A DNA stretch of 13,730 bases from a virus, in the UHGV virus genome UHGV-0087644; one strand, written 5' to 3'. A program made the translations under genes and the position numbers. The notes below the pieces were generated by a model. The model made no database searches. It was not told where the DNA came from and saw nothing but the letters and a program-made list of their open reading frames with translations. Each line of letters begins with the position of its first letter. The stretch's first letter is position 1. Positions 264 through 13,730 of this stretch are shown here, one piece after another.

Positions 264-632
264 TCACTCCCCTTTGATGCGAATGCCAGCGGCGCGGATT
301 GCATCGATGACTTCAGAAACTTTGTATGCCATTACCGTTTGGTAATCATCGTGAAAATCTGTTCGATGAAGCATGCTGCTACGTTCCGGGAGCAGTATTT
401 CCCGCTCCTCCAGTTCTGCAATGCGTTTGCTTTGAGCTTCCAGTTCACCCAGTAGTGCCAGCACGGTAGCCGGATTAGCCTTGGCAATAAAATCCCGGAC
501 TGGCTTACAATCAATCTCCGCACTACCGTGACGAATAACGAAAAAATCACCGTTTATTTTTTTAGCTTGCCACTTATCTTTACCGGCTTTCACTGCCACA
601 TCACGCAGTGCCTGATAGTCAATCTCGCTCAC
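264..632 (-). CDS. hypothetical phage protein (possibly Ead/Ea22-like, tentative)
   Basis: 122-aa ORF in track; GTG start at 632-630 preceded by strong SD AAGGAGG; overlaps upstream gene by 14 nt. Family label is from memory of an ANPATVLALLxELE-type motif only. Confidence 0.55.
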   Translation of the reverse strand: MSEIDYQALRDVAVKAGKDKWQAKKINGDFFVIRHGSAEIDCKPVRDFIAKANPATVLALLGELEAQSKRIAELEEREILLPERSSMLHRTDFHDDYQTVMAYKVSEVIDAIRAAGIRIKGE

Positions 633-1113
633 TGGTTACCTCCTTCATAAAAATAATCCAGTGGGTCTTGTCACCCTTTCCTGTTCGTTGACCGATAACA
701 GGCTTTCTGTCGGTCAGTGCCAATATCTGGCGAACAGGTATTTGCGTTTCATTCCATTTAAAAATCAGAACGCCGTATGGCCACAACACACGAAAGGCTT
801 CTTTGAATCCCTGCCGTAAATCATCACGCCAGGTATCTTTATTCAGCCGTCCATATTTCTTTCCCATCCAGGCGTTATCACCAACACGCTCAAGATGCGG
901 AGGGTCGAATACAACCATCGAAAAGGATGCGTCTGCAAATGGTAGTGCACGAAAATCAGCCATCAGGTCAGGACTGATAATCAGGCGTCGTCCATCACAC
1001 AATGTGTGCTCTTCCTTTCTGATATCGCTAAATATCGCCCGGTCGTCATTCTTATCGAACCAGAACATGCGACTACCACAGCACATGTCGAGGATTGCTG
1101 CATGTCCAGTCAC
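619..1113 (-). CDS. small SAM-dependent methyltransferase, probably DNA N6-adenine/N4-cytosine type
   Basis: 164-aa ORF; motif-I-like ILDMCCGS near N-terminus and motif-IV-like VVFDPPH about 60 aa later; GTG start at 1113 with strong SD AAGGAGG, overlapping upstream stop (GTGA). Target and base specificity not determinable by eye. Confidence 0.55.
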   Translation of the reverse strand: MTGHAAILDMCCGSRMFWFDKNDDRAIFSDIRKEEHTLCDGRRLIISPDLMADFRALPFADASFSMVVFDPPHLERVGDNAWMGKKYGRLNKDTWRDDLRQGFKEAFRVLWPYGVLIFKWNETQIPVRQILALTDRKPVIGQRTGKGDKTHWIIFMKEVTSERD

Positions 1114-1802
1114 TGGTTGCCTCCTTTGCGAAGCTGGGCATCGGTATTGATGCGACTAAAATAGAATCCGAATACTTTCTTCCATGGCTTAACAACAGCG
1201 TCCCTGATTGAGTTTGGGTTAAATCCAGCCTCGATGGCCTGTTTGCTGTCAAAGAACACATACCCAAAACCTTCCTCGTTCTCAGCGCAGACTGGACCTT
1301 TATACGAACCGTGTTTTCTTCCCCCGGCCAGACCTGTTCTATATGCGTGCTGAGTGTTGCCCGCTACCGTCGTCCACTCCAGGTTTGAAACATCATTGTT
1401 TTGTTTATTCCCGTCTATATGGTTAATTACGTGCTCATCAGAAGGCTTAGGGCCGAGAAAGTTTTCAGCAACTAATCGGTGGATGTTCACGCCTTTTAGT
1501 TTTCCTTCAAGCTCCAGCCTAACGAATAAATACTGATTTCTGTTCTTGCCGCGCATGGTTGGGTTTAATTGCTTTAGTTCGCCAGAGGCCAATGAGAAAA
1601 TGAGTCCCTTTGAGGTGATGAAATAGCGATACTTAAAACCAAAAATCTCTTTCACATCGCCAAATAAGTCAGCCAGCGCCGCGCACTTGGCCTCCGCTTC
1701 AGCAAATTTACGCACCAGATATTCAGCGTTTGTTTCGTTAACCTTTAAATCACTTGGGATGCATTTACCTTTCAGAAATCCATCCATCTCAATTAGTGTC
1801 AT
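1110..1802 (-). CDS. HNH homing-endonuclease-like protein (NUMOD4 + HNH_3 type)
   Basis: Track ORF 1110-1829; contains [17 protein letters not shown] (NUMOD4-like) then [20 protein letters not shown] (HNH_3 signature). Start chosen at ATG 1802, which overlaps the upstream stop (ATGA); 1811 or GTG 1829 are alternatives. Confidence 0.7.
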
Positions 1803-1972
1803 TTGTTCCATTTCTTCCCACTCCGCCACATTGCATTCAGATATTTGTTGTCATTAACAGAACCGAAACTATTTCTCTTAAGCAATTCCTCTCTCGATGG
1901 CATTGGCTTTACGCGTTGGCGAATAATCATTTCTGCCGGAAGAATGCCGGGATTGTATGCAAGTCCTCTCAT
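1799..1972 (-). CDS. hypothetical small protein (57 aa)
   Basis: Sub-ORF of track ORF 1799-2122; ATG at 1972 preceded by GAGGA; stop overlaps HNH start. The longer track version would overlap the upstream gene extensively. Confidence 0.3.
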
Positions 1973-2299: not shown

Positions 2300-2683
2300 T
2301 CAGAATGGGATGGAATCGTCGTATACAGGAGTGTTCTGCTGGTTACTACTTTGCTGCTGCGGGCCATTTCCTGAAGCTGCAAATCCAATCTTTGCATTCA
2401 GTAATTCAAGAGTGATTGATTGACCATTTTGCCCCTGATAAATATCAACCCTGATGTTTTCTCCGGTAATTTCAACAATGCCACCTTCAACAAGAACACT
2501 ACGGTAGTAATCCGCTTGCGCTCCCGGCTTGGCAAATACAACGGAGCTGTAGTTTGTCCATTCTTTCTTTTTTGTCTGGCGATCGTAATACTGAACGCCA
2601 GCACGGATGTTGAATCCGATATTTTCCCCGGTATGAAACTCTCTTGCGGGCTTGTTTAGTCTTACGGTAATCGAATGTGCCAT
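2300..2683 (-). CDS. mini single-stranded-DNA-binding (SSB-like, OB-fold) protein
   Basis: Start at internal ATG 2683-2681, overlapping erf stop (TAATG); 127 aa ending in DDSIPF, the canonical SSB acidic C-terminal tail, preceded by a Gly/Gln-rich linker and OB-fold-like N-terminal region. Confidence 0.55.
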   Translation of the reverse strand: MAHSITVRLNKPAREFHTGENIGFNIRAGVQYYDRQTKKKEWTNYSSVVFAKPGAQADYYRSVLVEGGIVEITGENIRVDIYQGQNGQSITLELLNAKIGFAASGNGPQQQSSNQQNTPVYDDSIPF

Positions 2684-3288
2684 TAAGCAGCAGCTCCTTC
2701 TAATTCGTCTCGTCTGATGTTGTAAACGTCCTGCGCTTTGTGCTGCTCCGGTGTGCCTTCGAGCATCTTCCACGCTTTGGCGAACGCCTGTTTAAGCTCT
2801 TCTACGGTGTTTTTCTGCATTGCTGCGTCAGTGAATGCTTTTAGAACCTGTTCAGGTGTAGGTGATGGTTTTGATTGCTTTGCTGCTGCGTTCTGCTGAT
2901 GTTTATGCTCGTCGGTATCTGCATCTTTCGCATCATCAATGCCGAACAAACCATTGAGGCAATACTTGCGTGCATAAGAGCTTGTAGCTCCCGTAACTTG
3001 TGCAGAATCCATTCCTTTCTTGCTTTCTTCCTCTCGTGCAAGAGCGGTTGCCGTATGACTGTTTTCGCCATCGGTAATAGTTGCCGTGGCTTTCACGTAA
3101 TACCGATCACCAATCAACACAACTTCATCGCTGATTGATAAAAACAGACCATTCAGTAACGGCTTAACGCCTTCAAGAATGTCTTCGCAGCTTCTGTATT
3201 TATATTTACCGAATGAGTTGTACTGATTCTTTGGCGCGTTCAGATTCTCCTGAATGGCTGCCAGCCTTGCATAAAATTCTTTGCTCAT
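2683..3288 (-). CDS. erf: Erf, essential recombination function (ssDNA annealing) protein
   Basis: Track ORF 2683-3318; sequence from MSKEFYARLAAIQENLNAPKNQYNSFGKYKYRSCEDILEG matches my recollection of P22 Erf. Start placed at ATG 3288 because the 3318 start is a TTG without SD. Confidence 0.8.
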   Translation of the reverse strand: MSKEFYARLAAIQENLNAPKNQYNSFGKYKYRSCEDILEGVKPLLNGLFLSISDEVVLIGDRYYVKATATITDGENSHTATALAREEESKKGMDSAQVTGATSSYARKYCLNGLFGIDDAKDADTDEHKHQQNAAAKQSKPSPTPEQVLKAFTDAAMQKNTVEELKQAFAKAWKMLEGTPEQHKAQDVYNIRRDELEGAAA

Positions 3289-3389
3289 ATGTTTGATCTC
3301 AGAATGGACACGGCCCAAGGAAATAACGCTGATTTAATACTTCGACTCGGGACAAATTAAGGCATACCCGCATTCCTTCGCGGTCGCCA

Positions 3390-3837: not shown

Positions 3838-4806
3838 TTAGTAGGTTATTTTTGTTGCGAATACTTCGCCTTTTACGATGGCTGTTATGATATTTTTAGC
3901 AACATCTTCTGATGCGCCAACCTTGATAAGGTCAGCAAGTATTTTGTTATTTACTTCTTTCCGGTGAGCTTTATCCTTTGCTCTACGCTCTTCTTCGTCC
4001 TTGATTCTTTTTCCTTCTGCTATTCTGGCTTGCTCTTTTGCTTCAGCCTCGCGCCGGATTCGTTCAGCCTCCTCCTGTGCTTTTCGGCGTTCTGCTTCAA
4101 TTGCCGCCTGCTTTTCTCTTTCAGCTCGTTCTGCTGCCTCTTTTGCTTCGCGCTGTGCTCGTTGCTCGGCTTCAATGCGTTCACGCTCTGCACGTTCCGC
4201 TGCGGCCTTAGCTTCTGCTTCTCGCCTTGCTGCTGCTTCAATTTCGGCTTTTGCCTTTGCTTCGGCTTCTGCTCTGGCTTTCTCTTCAGCTTCTCTTTTT
4301 AAGCGTTCTTCATACTCTCGCTTTTCCTGCTCCGCTTTGAGTCTTGCCTCTTCTCTTTGGCGGTCAAATTCGCGATCCATCAAAATAGCTATTTCATGGT
4401 CAGACTCAATTTGCTTTGCGAGAGCTTCAGCTGCTGCCTTAGCTTCTTCTTCGGCTTTAATCCGTGCCTGTTCCTCCTCATAATCAGTAAGAGGCTGGCG
4501 CGCCTTGGCTTTCAGTTCATCAAGGCGATCGCGCACTGTCTTGCGGTTGGCATCAATTAGCTTTGGAATTTCCTTCAGTTCAGCAACAAGGTCTTTGCCA
4601 AGACCATCGAGATATGTTTTCGTCTGCGCAACTTTATACGCCAGAGAAGCGATCTCCTTTCTGCCCTTTGCCGTTGTGATATCAGGCACAAAGGACATAA
4701 CTTCACGTTCAACCCTTTGAAGGATTTCTTCAATCTGGTCGGCAGACTGAAATACAGTCATTGCATTTGCTTTTTCAATAACAACTAAATCTGTTACTTC
4801 ACTCAT
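3838..4806 (-). CDS. coiled-coil protein with long E/R/K/A-rich helical segment, function unknown
   Basis: 322-aa track ORF; ATG 4806 with SD GGAGG; folded-looking N-terminal about 110 aa, then about 160 aa of charged low-complexity helix (EAEAKAKAEIEAAARREAEAKAAAERAERE...), then short C-terminal domain ending KITY. Confidence 0.7.
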   Translation of the reverse strand: MSEVTDLVVIEKANAMTVFQSADQIEEILQRVEREVMSFVPDITTAKGRKEIASLAYKVAQTKTYLDGLGKDLVAELKEIPKLIDANRKTVRDRLDELKAKARQPLTDYEEEQARIKAEEEAKAAAEALAKQIESDHEIAILMDREFDRQREEARLKAEQEKREYEERLKREAEEKARAEAEAKAKAEIEAAARREAEAKAAAERAERERIEAEQRAQREAKEAAERAEREKQAAIEAERRKAQEEAERIRREAEAKEQARIAEGKRIKDEEERRAKDKAHRKEVNNKILADLIKVGASEDVAKNIITAIVKGEVFATKITY

Positions 4807-5428: not shown

Positions 5429-5629
5429 TCAGGCAGCCTTGTTATTCTGTTTACCAAGTTCTCTGGCAATCATTGCCGTCGTTCGTATTGCCCATTTATC
5501 GACATATTTCCCATCTTCCATTACAGGAAACATTTCTTCAGGCTTAACCATGCATTCCGATTGCAGCTTGCATCCATTGCATCGCTTGAATTGTCCACAC
5601 CATTGATTTTTATCAATAGTCGTAGTCAT
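5429..5629 (-). CDS. ral: Ral-like restriction-alleviation protein
   Basis: 66-aa track ORF MTTTIDKNQWCGQFKRCNGCKLQSECMVKPEEMFPVMEDGKYVDKWAIRTTAMIARELGKQNNKAA; matches my recollection of lambda Ral (same length, same N-terminus). Confidence 0.6.
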   Translation of the reverse strand: MTTTIDKNQWCGQFKRCNGCKLQSECMVKPEEMFPVMEDGKYVDKWAIRTTAMIARELGKQNNKAA

Positions 5630-5842: not shown

Positions 5843-6025
5843 TCAGCGTACCTCTACTCCTGATGCGCCTCCATCGGGGTCAGGCGACCCATTAAAAGAC
5901 TTTCTGTGCTGAATTTCGTAACGAAGCGTCTTAATCGAAACGTCCACGGCATCGGCAAAACTGATGCCTTCTTCATTGGCCAGTTCCTGAACTACTCTTT
6001 TCAGTTCATTGTCCAAATTTTCCAT
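5843..6025 (-). CDS. hypothetical small protein (60 aa)
   Basis: Track ORF 5843-6049 trimmed to ATG 6025, preceded by AGGGGTGAGGG; MENLDNELKRVVQELANEEGISFADAVDVSIKTLRYEIQ... Confidence 0.45.
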   Translation of the reverse strand: MENLDNELKRVVQELANEEGISFADAVDVSIKTLRYEIQHRKSFNGSPDPDGGASGVEVR

Positions 6026-6100
6026 ACCCTCACCCCTTTGTTTATTCACCGCAGGCCACTCGACCCGCTCGATTCGTTCTGTGCGTAATGCTTGCGCCGA

Positions 6101-6261: not shown

Positions 6262-6603
6262 CTACTCCTTAAGAAGGCGCTCAAGGAATGCGCCATTACA
6301 GTCAATTACATCGATGATCTCTTTGGCTAATGAATCGATATCGTCGCTCGATTCGAAGTCATCCTGTGGGATGTAAAAGCCACCCTCAGTTTTAAACATA
6401 ATTTCCTTGACGGTTAATGCTGCAACCTCATACATAAAGCCATAAACAATGCGTCGAGGGGTGTTATACCTGAGTCCGAGGATCTTTAATTTTTCTGACT
6501 CCTGAGTCAGCTGGTCGTATGCCTTTACCAGCTCCGCTATCAGTCCCTTTTTCAGCTCACCACGCAGTACGTACATCCCGTTAGCCGTTTTATTTTCCAT
6601 CAC
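6262..6603 (-). CDS. hypothetical protein (113 aa)
   Basis: Track ORF; start overlaps upstream stop (6600-6603); no motif recognised. Confidence 0.55.
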   Translation of the reverse strand: MMENKTANGMYVLRGELKKGLIAELVKAYDQLTQESEKLKILGLRYNTPRRIVYGFMYEVAALTVKEIMFKTEGGFYIPQDDFESSDDIDSLAKEIIDVIDCNGAFLERLLKE

Positions 6604-6897: not shown

Positions 6898-7242
6898 CTA
6901 TGACCATTTTTTATTTGGATTTCGTTGGTGAGCGTGATTAACAACTCTGTGCATTACATCCTCATATTTTTCATCTTCAATTTTTTCGACATCGCGAGGA
7001 AATGGTGTTGCTAATGCTTTGTCAACTTTGTCCATTGGTTCTTCATTAATCTTATATTCAGGACCGTCATCTATAGCATTAAATCCAGGTGTTACACCGT
7101 TTTTTAATGCATATGCTATCCTTTTTTCCCATCTCGCTATTCTCCTCCTGTCTCGAGATGTAAGACCTCTATCAGATACTTTTCTGTTTTGTCCGCGGTC
7201 AGGATTAACATAAATAGTCTTTTTCACCATAAGCATACTCAA
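6898..7242 (-). CDS. hypothetical protein with arginine-rich N-terminal region (114 aa)
   Basis: Track ORF; start overlaps N stop (ATGA); SRDRRRIARWEKRIAYALKNG is basic; followed directly by a terminator. Confidence 0.5.
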   Translation of the reverse strand: MSMLMVKKTIYVNPDRGQNRKVSDRGLTSRDRRRIARWEKRIAYALKNGVTPGFNAIDDGPEYKINEEPMDKVDKALATPFPRDVEKIEDEKYEDVMHRVVNHAHQRNPNKKWS

Positions 7243-7544
7243 TAAGCACCGTACGGTAGTTTACTGTACAATTTTATTTTTTGGACTGCATGTATTTTGT
7301 TTCCTAACGGGTTTGAATCTTTGTAATAAATACTTCTATTTTTTCGAACGACTTCTTCTTTCTTCTTGCAGCAAAGGCTTCCTAGTGATGCTGCTTTGTC
7401 TGCTCTGACGCAACCAGAGAGCTTTAGCGCAATTTTTCGCGCCAGTGCTTCATTACTGCGTCGCTCGGCAATAAGTTCTGCTCTGCGAGCTTTGTAGCGG
7501 CTTTTTGCCGTACCTTTGGATTCTTTCCAGACAATGGTTACCAT
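7239..7544 (-). CDS. N: N-like transcription antitermination protein (phi21-type arginine-rich motif)
   Basis: Track ORF 7239-7574 trimmed to ATG 7544 (SD AGGAG); N-terminus MVTIVWKESKGTAKSRYKARRAELIAERR matches the phi21 N arginine-rich RNA-binding peptide as I recall it; nutL lies upstream. Confidence 0.75.
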   Translation of the reverse strand: MVTIVWKESKGTAKSRYKARRAELIAERRSNEALARKIALKLSGCVRADKAASLGSLCCKKKEEVVRKNRSIYYKDSNPLGNKIHAVQKIKLYSKLPYGAY

Positions 7545-7654
7545 AATGGTCTCCTTTAAGTGGCTTTGGCGCATGACGCGTCGAGGTGCTTATCTTCTCG
7601 ATCGCTGTCTTGCAGCTGCAATTCGCGCCATCCCCAAAACCACTCAAGTTCTGG

Positions 7655-9381: not shown

Positions 9382-10198
9382 GTTAGCTGATTACAGGCCT
9401 CAACTGGAGGTCGTGGAGCATCGCGTGGCAGAACTCGAAGATGGCTACACTCGGACTGCAAACACACTGTTAGAAGCCGCCATGCTTTCTGGACTTACTC
9501 TACATCAGTTACTGATTGTTATGGCTGTGTGGCGCAAGACATACGGTTACAACAAAAAAATAGATTGGATCGGAAACGAACAGTTCGCTGAACTCACTGG
9601 CATGGCACCAACCAAATGCTCTACCGCCAAAAACGAGCTTATCAGAATGGGAGTTCTCATTCAGGTTGGGCGTCAAGTTGGTATGAATACAAACATTTCC
9701 GAGTGGAAAACGAAAGTTAACGGATTCGGTAAAACATTTACCAATTCGGTAAAACAAACCTTCACCAAATCGGTAAAAAGCAATTTACCGAATCAGTCAA
9801 ACACAAAAGACAATATACAAAAGACAATAAATACAAATACCCCCTTACCCCCTAACGGGGATGGCGATGGGCAGGTTAAACCTGAACGTCGCAAGGCAGA
9901 ACGAATCGACTACGAATCCTTCCTGAACGCCTACAACACCGAAGTCGGTGACAGACTTCCACACGCTGTTGCGGTCAACGAGAAACGAAAACGCCGCCTG
10001 AAGAAAATCATCCCGCAACTGAAAACGCCAAACGTGGACGGTTTCAGGGCGTATGTCAGGGCTTTTGTGCATCAGGCCAAGCCGTTTTACTTCGGAGACA
10101 ACGACACGGGCTGGACGGCTGATTTTGATTACCTGCTTAGGGAAGACTCGTTAACGGGAGTTCGGGAAGGGAAGTTTGCAGACAGGGGGATTGCATGA
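9368..10198 (+). CDS. O: replication initiation protein O homolog
   Basis: 276-aa track ORF after cII; SD AGGAG; iterons and an A/T-rich stretch inside the coding region; stop overlaps helicase start (ATGA). Confidence 0.75.
9724..9840. repeat. origin of replication: iterons plus A/T-rich region inside the O gene
   Basis: Direct repeats ATTCGGTAAAAC (9724-9735, 9744-9755), ATCGGTAAAAAG (9768-9779), inverted copy TTTACCGAAT (9784-9793), then A-rich 9801-9840. Confidence 0.6.
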
Positions 10199-11571
10199 AA
10201 CAGGATATCGAAGCGAGCGTTATCGGTGGCCTGCTGATTGGTGGATTAACACCAACCGCCAGCGACGTTCTGGCAACGCTGGATCCGGAAGCGTTTTCAA
10301 TTCCACTCTACCGGAAAGCCTTCGAGGTTATCCGCAAGCAGGCGAGAAACAGAAACCTAATCGATGCGCTGATGGTTGCCGAGGCGTGCGGAGAGGAGCA
10401 TTTCACGTCAATCCTGATGACCAGCAAAAACTGCCCGAGTGCCGCAAACCTGAAGGGATATGCCGGAATGGTCGCGGATAACTATCACCGCCGTCTGGTT
10501 CTGGAAATCATGGATGAAATGCGTGAACCAATTCAGAGCGGAACCATCGACGCATCGAGTCAGGCGATGGATGAGCTTGTAAAGCGTCTTTCAGCCATCA
10601 GAAAGCCCCGTGACGAGGTTAAACCTGTACGGTTAGGGGAAATCATCACTGACTACACTGACACGCTTGACAGGCGCCTGAGGAACGGAGAAGAGTCAGA
10701 TACCCTGAAGACCGGAATCGAAGAACTTGACGCCATCACCGGAGGGATGAACGCAGAAGACCTGGTGATAATCGCTGCTCGTCCTGGTATGGGGAAAACC
10801 GAGCTGGCGCTGAAGATTGCCGAAGGCGTTGCAAGCCGAGTTATTCCTGGTTCTGACGTCCGGCGCGGAGTGTTGATTTTCTCGATGGAAATGAGCGCAT
10901 TGCAGATTGCAGAGCGAAGCATTGCCAACGCCGGGAGGATGTCGGTTAGCGTGCTGCGAAATCCTGCATCGATGGATGACGAAGGCTGGGCGCGCGTTGC
11001 TAACGGCATGAGTCAGCTTGCAGATTTGGATGTATGGGTAGTCGATGCCTCGCGGTTATCGGTCGAAGAAATACGCTCAATCGCAGAACGGCACAAACAG
11101 GAAAATCCAAACCTGTCACTCATCATGGCGGATTATCTTGGCCTGATTGAGAAGCCGAAAGCAGACCGCAACGACCTCGCAATTGCTCACATCTCCGGAA
11201 GCCTGAAGGCGATGGCGAAAGACCTGAAAACGCCAGTTATCTCCCTGAGTCAGCTTTCGCGCGATGTTGAGAAGCGACCAAACAAACGTCCGACAAACGC
11301 AGATTTGCGTGATTCTGGAAGCATTGAGCAGGACGCAGACTCAATCATCATGCTCTATCGGGAAGCTGTATATGACGAGAACAGTAGCGCCGCGCCATTT
11401 GCTGAAATCATTGTGACGAAAAACCGTTTTGGCTCACTTGGTACGGTTTACCAGCGGTTCTGCAACGGACACTTTGTTGCATGTGACCAGGATGAAGCCA
11501 GACAGATTTGCACAGCATCAAATGCACCTGCTGCGCGTGGCAGACGATATGCACAAGGGGCTGACGTATGA
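10195..11571 (+). CDS. DnaB-family replicative DNA helicase (P22 gene 12-like)
   Basis: 458-aa track ORF; Walker [14 protein letters not shown]; DnaB-like N-terminal region and RecA-like C-terminal domain; coupled to O. Confidence 0.85.
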
Positions 11572-11651
11572 CCATCTACATCACTGAGCTGATAGCAGGC
11601 CTGCTGGTAATCGCAGGCCTTTTTATTTGGGGGAGGGTAAATCGTGGCTGA
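11568..11651 (+). CDS. possible 27-aa hydrophobic peptide
   Basis: ATG overlaps helicase stop (ATGA); [27 protein letters not shown]. Could be spurious. Confidence 0.2.
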
Positions 11652-11850
11652 GTTAATTTTCTCTGCATTGAGGATTCTCGGTGCTATGTGGATGGTGGCG
11701 ACGTTCATTGTTGTTGCCAGCAGTTTTGTCCGGTTGGTAGGCGAAGGTAAAGACCTGGTGGGTGTGCTTTTCGGTAGCATTTTCCTGTGGGTGATTATCG
11801 GTGTTATGCCTGTCGCTGTAGCAAAAATGGCGTGGCGTTTTGTGAGTTGA
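11644..11850 (+). CDS. small membrane protein with two predicted TM helices (68 aa)
   Basis: Track ORF; GTG start preceded by GGGGGAGG; two hydrophobic segments. Confidence 0.4.
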   Translation: MAELIFSALRILGAMWMVATFIVVASSFVRLVGEGKDLVGVLFGSIFLWVIIGVMPVAVAKMAWRFVS

Positions 11851-11867
11851 ACTGAGGGTAAGTATCG

Positions 11868-12188
11868 ATGGACGAATCAAGAAAGCAGTTTGAAGAAAGT
11901 TGGTTGCGACGTGGAGGCGAATCCTCAGACCTTATCCGTTACCCTGAAAATCACCATGAAATTGGCAGTGGTAATATTGGTGGTCAATATGTGATGGACG
12001 ATGTTCAAGGCCACTGGCAAACGTGGCAGGCATCGCGATCAGCTATTGAAATAACCGCGCCAAAGTTCATCGACAGCAGAGAAGCATTAGCCAAAGGGTT
12101 TACTGTTGATTATTCCAATGGCTTCGGCGATGGAATGGATGCTTATGAGGAAAACATCCGCGCCGTTGGAGTCAAAGTGAAGGAGTGA
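11868..12188 (+). CDS. hypothetical protein (106 aa), start of nin region
   Basis: Track ORF; SD GAGGG; stop overlaps next gene. Confidence 0.5.
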   Translation: MDESRKQFEESWLRRGGESSDLIRYPENHHEIGSGNIGGQYVMDDVQGHWQTWQASRSAIEITAPKFIDSREALAKGFTVDYSNGFGDGMDAYEENIRAVGVKVKE

Positions 12189-12190
12189 CG

Positions 12191-12601
12191 ATGAAGCAAA
12201 CAATCTTCCTCCGTGGTAAACAACAACAGCAAGCCGCAATCAACGCCATCCTCGCAACACCACTCGATAAAGACAAGCCAGTTACCATCCGCATTACTGA
12301 CTACAAGCGCAACCTTGACCAGAACGCAAAATTTCACGCGATGCTGGCGGATATCGCACGTCAGGTTCAATGGTGCGGAAAATGGTTAAAACCGGAACAA
12401 TGGAAGGTTTTGTTGATCAGCGGTCATGCAGTGGCAACAAAACAGGAAGCTGATGTTTTGCCCGGGCTTGAAGGCGAATACGTCAACATTCGCGAAAGTA
12501 GCGCGCAGATGAGTGTGAAGCGTATGGCAAGTCTGATTGAGTACACGACAGCATGGGCTATTGGTCAGGGTGTCAGATTTACCGACAGGAGGTACGAATG
12601 A
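12191..12601 (+). CDS. ninB: NinB (Orf-family recombination mediator)
   Basis: Track ORF 12185-12601 trimmed to ATG 12191 (SD AAGGAG); ...[27 protein letters not shown]... parallels lambda NinB (RSLDQNRKLWACLGDVSRQVEWHGRWL). Confidence 0.8.
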
Positions 12602-12774
12602 GACGACAGCGACGAAGCATCACCGACATCATCTGCGAAAACTGCAAATACCTTCCAACGAAACGCTCCAGAAATAAACGCAAGCCAATCCCAAAAGAAT
12701 CTGACGTAAAAACCTTCAATTACACGGCTCACCTGTGGGATATCCGGTGGCTAAGACATCGTGCGAGGAAATGA
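12598..12774 (+). CDS. ninE: NinE
   Basis: Track ORF 12553-12774 trimmed to ATG 12598, overlapping the NinB stop (ATGA); [58 protein letters not shown] matches my recollection of lambda NinE. Confidence 0.65.
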
Positions 12775-13130
12775 CAATGGATTATTCACAGTTAAGTGAT
12801 TTTGAAATTAACAGAATGGTAGGAGACATAATTTTTAAAGGCCTTTGGGCATGTAAACCGGAAACGTCAGGGAATAACACCAACAAATGGTATTACGGAA
12901 ATGCTGATACAACTTTTGAGCCATTAAACCCTTTACCTGACTACTGCAATGATCCTAGCGCCTCATGGCCGATTATTGAGAAATACAGGATTAGCATTAT
13001 CAATCTCGATGAAGACGAGTGGGGTGCACGTGGTGTGGCCTACTGTAAATCTAAGCGAGCTATACATGAAAATTCCCTCCGCGCCGCCATGATTGTCTTT
13101 CTCATGATGCAGGACGCCAATAATGCTTAG
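12771..13130 (+). CDS. hypothetical protein in the P22 ninX position (NinX-like, tentative)
   Basis: Track ORF 12735-13130 trimmed to ATG 12771, overlapping the NinE stop (ATGA); 119 aa. Confidence 0.45.
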
Positions 13131-13299
13131 CCCATCCCAATCCCTCCAATACCAGAAAGAAAGCGTCGAGCGGGCTTTAACGTGCGCTAACTGCGGTCAG
13201 AAGCTGCATGTGCTGGAAGTTCACGTGTGTGAGCACTGCTGCGCAGAACTGATGAGCGATCCGAATAGCTCAATGTACGAGGAAGAAGACGATGAATGA
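13123..13299 (+). CDS. ninF: NinF
   Basis: 58-aa ORF not in track; [58 protein letters not shown] matches my recollection of lambda NinF. Confidence 0.65.
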   Translation: MLSPSQSLQYQKESVERALTCANCGQKLHVLEVHVCEHCCAELMSDPNSSMYEEEDDE

Positions 13300-13730
13300 G
13301 TTAATAAATGGCAATGCCATCAAAATGACAAGCATTGAAATCGCTGAGTTGGTGGGTAAGCGTCATGACAATGTGAAACGTACCATCGAAACGCTGGCTA
13401 AAAATGGTGTTATCCGGCTTCCTCAAATTGAGGTTTCCGAAAGAATCAATAACTTAGGGTTCAATGTTCAGTACGAGCATTACGTCTTCGAAGGCGAACA
13501 AGGTAAGCGAGATAGTATTGTTGTTGTTGCCCAGTTGTCGCCAGAGTTCACCGCTCGCCTTGTTGACCGCTGGCGAGAGCTTGAAGAAGCTGCGGTTAAT
13601 ATCCCCAAAACGCTACCGGAAGCGTTGCGCCTTGCTGCTGATCTTGCTGAGCAGAAAATGCAACTGGAAAACCAGCTCGCAATTGCCGCACCTAAAGTTG
13701 AGTTTGCCGATCGCGTTGGCGAGGCCAGCG
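13292..13730 (+). CDS. Rha-family regulatory / antirepressor-like protein, 3' end beyond the window
   Basis: ATG overlaps NinF stop; MNELINGNAIKMTSIEIAELVGKRHDNVKRTIETLAKNGV resembles a Rha N-terminal domain, followed by an AntA/KilA-type region; open to the window edge. Confidence 0.6.
   Translation, partial: MNELINGNAIKMTSIEIAELVGKRHDNVKRTIETLAKNGVIRLPQIEVSERINNLGFNVQYEHYVFEGEQGKRDSIVVVAQLSPEFTARLVDRWRELEEAAVNIPKTLPEALRLAADLAEQKMQLENQLAIAAPKVEFADRVGEAS

Follow-up and report, generated by a model that had tools for sequence, protein, structure and literature searches.

The open reading frame that runs off the end of the 13,730-nt window (the whole stretch of DNA analyzed here) corresponds to the 5′ part of roi, an already known and annotated gene at its position behind ninF. 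Our data are jointly best explained by the presence of this gene in an E. coli phage or prophage of the lambdoid group (HK022/HK97/HK620-like), within its nin region, including a presumed control by Roi and IHF, and we consider this overall explanation highly probable. The reading frame starts with an ATG at positions 13292-13294 on the plus strand and stays open for 146 codons up to position 13730, where the window ends, without a stop codon. It should provide codons 1-146, or 61%, of the 240 codons expected for roi, and we have very high confidence in this gene assignment.

Identity and domain structure of the gene

The deduced 146-residue fragment is identical in 145 of its 146 positions to the Roi protein of phage HK620 (AAK28878), and the same value was obtained with WP_089640521, annotated by PGAP as a KilAC protein, from a prophage of E. 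coli PSS-04. Identity amounts to 91% with the Roi protein of H-19B and to 82% with that of HK022. Residue 100 is an alanine in the window, and a threonine or serine in the HK620-type and H-19B-type relatives, a single conservative change. A megablast search with positions 12700-13730 retrieved the same order of ninE, ninX, ninF and this gene from E. coli prophages with up to 99.3% identity, and the gene is labelled roi or "DNA-binding protein Roi" in HK620, H-19B, CUS-3, Stx2 phage 86 and others. Among the PHROGs, its product falls into family 63 ("anti-repressor Ant", E 6.6e-51), and RefSeq refers to the family as "phage antirepressor KilAC domain-containing protein." Taken together, these matches far exceed what chance would produce. 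A sequence search of the PDB with full-length Roi gave no match at E ≤ 0.1. NinG and other core nin homologues were considered as alternative identities and are excluded, as no nin family is found among the Pfam and PHROG matches of the fragment; in H-19B, NinG is encoded by a separate gene located 3′ of roi.

A reading of the window made from its letters alone (the sequence-only reading) had placed this frame directly behind ninF and had assigned its product to the Rha family, and both statements are borne out by our searches. Residues 12-99 (13325-13588, plus strand) match the Pfam model PF09669 (Phage_pRha) with 38.3 bits (curated cut-off 29.9; E 2.1e-9), and the match covers the whole 91-position model. 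The NCBIfam model TIGR02681 (phage_pRha) scored 19.1 bits against its cut-off of 45.95 and aligned to residues 12-36 alone. Judged by these models, the roi product belongs to the broad Rha superfamily and lies outside the narrower TIGR02681 subfamily. The Rha proteins of phi80 and P22, the founding members of PF09669, share with the Roi protein of the window a Rha domain that exceeds the Pfam threshold, but they lack a KilAC domain and are encoded at another genome position. One relative of the window (L001) carries a separate Rha-family gene after its lysis genes. An AlphaFold2 model of the 146-residue fragment, which was computed without an alignment and serves as a rough guide to secondary structure only (pLDDT 51.6), predicts with low confidence a helix-turn-helix at residues 14-38 and a β-hairpin wing within the Rha domain.

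The expectation that a domain search would recover both a Rha and an AntA/KilA-C domain held for the Rha domain in the fragment itself and for the second domain in full-length relatives. In 240-residue proteins that are 99% identical over the shared part, PF03374 (ANT/KilAC) matches residues 126-228 with 113 bits (cut-off 25.3; E 8e-33). The window contains just the first 21 codons of this domain (residues 126-146; 13667-13730, plus strand), a part in which the full-length relatives are identical to it, and the fragment on its own does not match PF03374. Codon 146 being the last in the window, our statements on the C-terminal domain, on the stop codon and on the gene downstream are based on relatives.

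On the 5′ side, a Pfam search of the reading frames of the window yields the gene order ninB-ninE-ninX-ninF. NinF (58 residues; 13123-13299, plus strand; Pfam NinF E 1.8e-12, PHROG 672 E 1.2e-37) ends with a TGA codon at 13297-13299. The predicted overlap between ninF and the following gene exists, but it is not the four-nucleotide ATGA overlap that had been read from the sequence; it comprises 8 nt (ATGAATGA, 13292-13299), in which roi is read in another frame than ninF. A Shine-Dalgarno-like GAGGA motif (13279-13283, plus strand) is situated 8 nt 5′ of the roi ATG, inside the ninF coding sequence, and this placing suggests that translation of roi is probably coupled to that of ninF. The ninF-roi junction is identical base for base in HK022, H-19B and HK620, and in HK022 the final ~140 nt of ninF together with the junction match the window without a single difference. 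The minus strand of 13292-13730 contains only two reading frames, of 41 and 42 codons. A promoter scan of the plus strand from 11500 to 13730 found no sigma-70-like promoter and none specific for roi, a terminator-like, tR2-like hairpin is present at 11597-11620, 3′ of the gene for a DnaB-like helicase (P), and scans of the window for Rfam families and tRNAs gave zero matches. The roi gene is most likely transcribed from pR together with the other nin genes, as a delayed-early gene.

A candidate operator and an IHF core site inside roi

The Roi protein of HK022 (gp65; Clerget & Boccard, 1996) provides the most informative comparison. As in the window, its gene follows directly on a ninF homologue through the same ATGAATGA junction, and the 82% identity over 146 residues is made up of identical flanking segments and one divergent stretch. 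Residues 22-63, which contain the helix-turn-helix and the wing, represent another allele in HK022. At the DNA level, the allele-variable segment spans approximately nucleotides 62-195 of the gene (13352-13486, plus strand; 134 nt in the comparison of HK022 with the window), encodes the recognition helix and wing region, and is 56% identical between the two phages, whereas its flanks are 95-100% identical. Two short DNA elements within this segment keep their place: an IHF core at the same position and a dyad at the same center, the latter with the half-site CTGCA in HK022 and CCTCAA in the window. HK620, H-19B, other Stx phages and the gene encoding WP_089640521 carry the same helix-turn-helix, dyad and IHF-core allele as the window, together with the same ninE-(ninX)-ninF-roi order.

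The dyad of the window is a perfect 6-1-6 palindrome, CCTCAA-A-TTGAGG, at 13421-13433, centered on nucleotide 136 of the gene. A search for related loci with an alignment of Roi had returned 80 copies that all represent one allele, and we therefore used two anchored DNA patterns to gather alleles from IMG/VR and picked 12 representative N-terminal types. Nine of the 12 allele types possess a dyad at the identical center, with at least five of the six arm positions complementary; at all other centers, the corresponding null rate is 0.0036 for at least 5/6 and 0.001 for 6/6. The half-sites of four types read CCTCAA, CCTGCA, CCCCCA and CCACAG. In alignment A6, 82% of the cells are paired, compared to 33-49% when the partner is slid, and four of the seven dyad pairs show changes on both sides, i.e., compensatory ones; the covariation score was reached by none of 500 shuffles. 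Symmetry extends to 7-1-7 in two allele types that lack the IHF core, and the dyad is broken (CCTCAG) in a small number of copies of the allele found in the window.

The half-site type goes along with residues 22-35, the predicted recognition helix, and this holds also for the distant genes of Stx2_14040 and APSE-7. Helix KRHDNVKRTIETL is found with CCTCAA, SRHDKVKQSIERL with CCCCCA, SR(H/P)(S/D)NVK(V/I)SI(D/E)RL with CCTGCA, and SRPDSVKRTIETL with CCACAG. Since the helix allele and the dyad are only about 25-60 nt apart, this correlation could in part reflect linkage, which weakens the argument for a matched specificity of helix and dyad and leaves the selection on dyad symmetry unaffected.

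Compensatory changes would also be expected of an RNA helix, and the dyad could accordingly be read as an mRNA hairpin instead of a DNA operator, with a function for instance in processing, pausing or the control of translation. A stem of 5 bp with a loop of 3 nt is possible and coincides with the predicted local fold. The fold of 13395-13475 is nevertheless no more stable than that of shuffled sequences (z = 0.24), and the Rfam scan detected no family here. Moreover, the innermost pair around the 1-nt spacer could not form in RNA, yet it is complementary in 11 of the 12 alleles, one of which has acquired it through a double change (CAG-A-CTG), and operators of dimeric helix-turn-helix proteins typically have exact dyads of this kind, which here extend up to 7-1-7. 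We regard the hairpin as the weaker interpretation and assign it only a small probability.

The dyad at 13421-13433, next to the IHF site, is instead a likely candidate for the operator of Roi, a proposal that we make with moderate confidence. Located 10 nt downstream of the dyad (13444-13456, plus strand), the IHF core consensus WATCAANNNNTTR (AATCAATAACTTA) has its sole match in the 13.7-kb window; as 0.95 matches are expected by chance, this count is unremarkable in itself and the site gains its weight from position and conservation alone. In HK022, the sole match to the IHF core in 9 kb lies at the same position of the gene (nucleotide 153). Four diverged alleles, HK022 and three other types, share the core at nucleotide 153, and the window possesses it within the 56%-identical segment. 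The synonymous bases of ATC-AAT-nnn-TTA are identical in these four alleles, compared to 50-57% identity of nearby third positions.

Further copies of the Roi dyad in the window and in the relative L001 are represented by near matches at chance level only. One of them, CCTCAACTGGAGG at 9398-9410 near the start of replication gene O, is a near-palindrome that differs from the roi dyad by two mismatches. The window has no other site of this kind outside roi, a single one is close to chance (0.15-0.3 expected by our estimate), and a role as a secondary Roi site is only possible. A second perfect 6-1-6 palindrome, ATGGCA-A-TGCCAT, is present within roi itself at 13308-13320 (plus strand; codons 6-10), where the 5′ end of the gene is conserved in full. 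In total, the 13.7-kb window holds eight perfect 6-1-6 palindromes (3.5 expected), two of which fall into the 439-nt roi fragment.

The roi alleles of the 933W/EDL933-Stx type (L006, L097 and L108), with the helix SQHGNVRISIERL and the wing ENKQTISPNKF, contain neither the dyad nor the IHF core. A mechanism built on these two elements can consequently not be universal, and the 933W-type Roi proteins may form a functionally different class in major Stx2a phages.

A possible Roi-IHF circuit

The definition of roi goes back to HK022, whose Roi protein is said to contain a helix-turn-helix and reportedly binds to a site that lies inside the roi gene, close to a site for IHF; binding of Roi is reportedly stabilized by IHF, and point mutants of roi are said to be able to grow on hosts deficient in IHF. 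According to work credited to Henthorn and Friedman (1995), Rha is reportedly inhibitory to phage growth in IHF-deficient hosts as well, and the Rha proteins of phi80 and P22 have an IHF-dependent phenotype in common with Roi, as is also stated in the Pfam family text. Two later papers refer to Clerget & Boccard (1996) when they describe Roi as binding DNA and as implicated both in the lytic growth of HK022 and in inhibition of the lytic cycle; sequence-specific DNA binding and the inhibition of lytic growth in IHF-deficient hosts are ascribed to it through these citations (PMC3430580, PMC4587872).

The DNA binding and the IHF phenotype are thus drawn from the literature on the HK022 protein, whereas from the sequences we infer the operator function of the dyad and the step of autoregulation or roadblock. 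In the resulting scheme, the N-terminal helix-turn-helix/winged domain of the Rha type would enable the two-domain Roi protein to bind DNA in a sequence-specific manner. A Roi dimer would occupy the dyad at 13421-13433 in its own coding sequence and IHF the adjoining core site at 13444-13456, and the nucleoprotein complex formed by both would limit the production of Roi, transcription onward toward Q, or both. Without IHF, this control would fail and Roi would block lytic growth. In its most far-reaching form, the proposal holds that the Roi operator is embedded in the code for the protein's own DNA-binding region and co-varies with the recognition helix, so that a cassette of about 130 bp, comprising both specificity and target, is swapped between phages; together with the IHF site it would set up, upstream of Q, a complex within the gene that acts in autoregulation or as a roadblock, a circuit lost in the 933W-type alleles. 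We put this extended version forward tentatively and with more doubt than confidence.

A different role is implied by the family labels of PHROG 63 and RefSeq. Roi might be a true antirepressor whose KilAC domain binds the repressor of another phage, either co-resident or superinfecting; it might also be a modulator that dampens RecA and the SOS response like AriS of Listeria. In either case, it would alter the induction of other prophages. P1 Ant1/KilA and Listeria AriS are the ANT/KilAC-domain regulators closest to Roi, and its layout of an N-terminal regulatory domain followed by KilAC corresponds to that of AriS-like proteins. In Listeria, the KilAC domain of such proteins acts as an inhibitor of the SOS response, and proteins of the pRha-KilAC type have been counted among them (PMC9043618); this was the only functional work on the domain in the literature that we searched. 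Most AriS-like proteins, however, possess an AntA/AntB or Bro-N domain at their N-terminus, unlike the Rha domain of Roi, and AriS, which comes from Firmicutes, is only a distant relative. The antirepressor labels have been transferred from P1 Ant1/KilA on the basis of domain similarity, and none of the PADLOC defense models matches roi. As far as we know, roi, a gene of the delayed-early operon, is not controlled in the way that P22 ant is. The literature that we searched, which mentions Roi in secondary citations only, yielded no experimental report of Roi binding a repressor or affecting the SOS response. We regard an antirepressor or SOS action of Roi as unlikely.

Distribution of roi and composition of the early region

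The gene had been taken for an insertion into the nin region, between ninF and ninG. This arrangement is indeed present in H-19B, and the ninF-roi junction itself recurs in HK022, HK620 and many Stx phages. DNA specific for roi (13300-13730) was detected at a coverage of at least 80% in 965 of 5426 complete E. coli genomes, about a fifth. A tblastn search with the Roi protein matched 1467 phage records, in 792 of which a single match covers at least 80% of the protein. Among 123 distinct roi contexts from IMG/VR, ninF is located upstream in 78, and the next gene is ybcO (DUF1364) in 88 and ninG in 34; accordingly, roi is followed by ybcO-rusA in HK620 and PSS-04 and by ninG in H-19B. In the nin region of lambdoid phages, roi represents a commonplace alternative module and no unusual insertion.

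A number of public roi copies in IMG/VR (among L012-L291) are disrupted, either by a stop at codon 45 (CCT TAA ATT), by a stop at codon 50, or by frameshifts after codon 52. These copies are consistent with IS629 insertions within roi of Stx2a phages, to which a passage in PMC4587872 refers, and the gene appears to be dispensable in some prophages. As the window stops within roi, its reading frame might likewise be a decayed or truncated pseudogene of a defective prophage that yields no functional protein. All 146 codons are intact, though, with one conservative difference from the Roi protein of functional phages, and the flanking early genes of the window all give full-length family matches, so that we hold decay of this particular copy to be very improbable.

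In the leftward direction, the window contains an N-like antiterminator gene (7239-7574, minus strand; PHROG 271, E 1e-31) that is directly followed on its 3′ side by a gene for a Nun-like termination factor (6898-7242, minus strand). The predicted product of the latter is identical to HK022 Nun in 106 of 109 residues (PHROG 5632, E 9e-71). Nun replaces N in HK022, whereas the phage represented by the window has both, and a pair of N and Nun is also annotated in mEp235 and mEpX1. Three further reading frames of the early left region gave little or no hint of their function: the one of 322 residues (3838-4806, minus strand) matches only PHROGs 1376 and 21365, both of unknown function, and those of 113 (6262-6603, minus strand) and 68 residues (5843-6049, minus strand) have no PHROG match at E ≤ 1e-5; none of the three has a match in PADLOC. 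In the leftward operon, the distal end (619-1829, minus strand) is occupied by two abutting frames, one DNA-methyltransferase-like (164 residues; its match spans positions 50-205 in a PHROG model of 229 positions) and one HNH-endonuclease-like (239 residues), and upstream of these two in the operon are Abc2 (1983-2276), an SSB-like protein (2300-2773), Erf (2683-3318) and Ral (5429-5629). At a single location, coverage of the 13.7-kb window stays below 80% in all phage records and complete E. coli genomes, with maxima of 54% (CUS-3) and 65%, respectively. Judged by these matches, known modules are assembled in a new combination in this early region, a mosaicism that lambdoid phages commonly show.

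Our analysis guards against classing roi as an uncommon insertion or as an antirepressor of proven function; the finding itself is of little weight, since roi behind ninF is a standard annotated feature of phages of the HK022, HK97, HK620 and Stx types. The covarying dyad and the conserved IHF core provide a testable candidate for the Roi operator, which is of modest, specialist interest and does not constitute a new kind of system. The alleles of roi would represent natural specificity variants of a protein whose role in the development of lambdoid and Stx phages is poorly defined.
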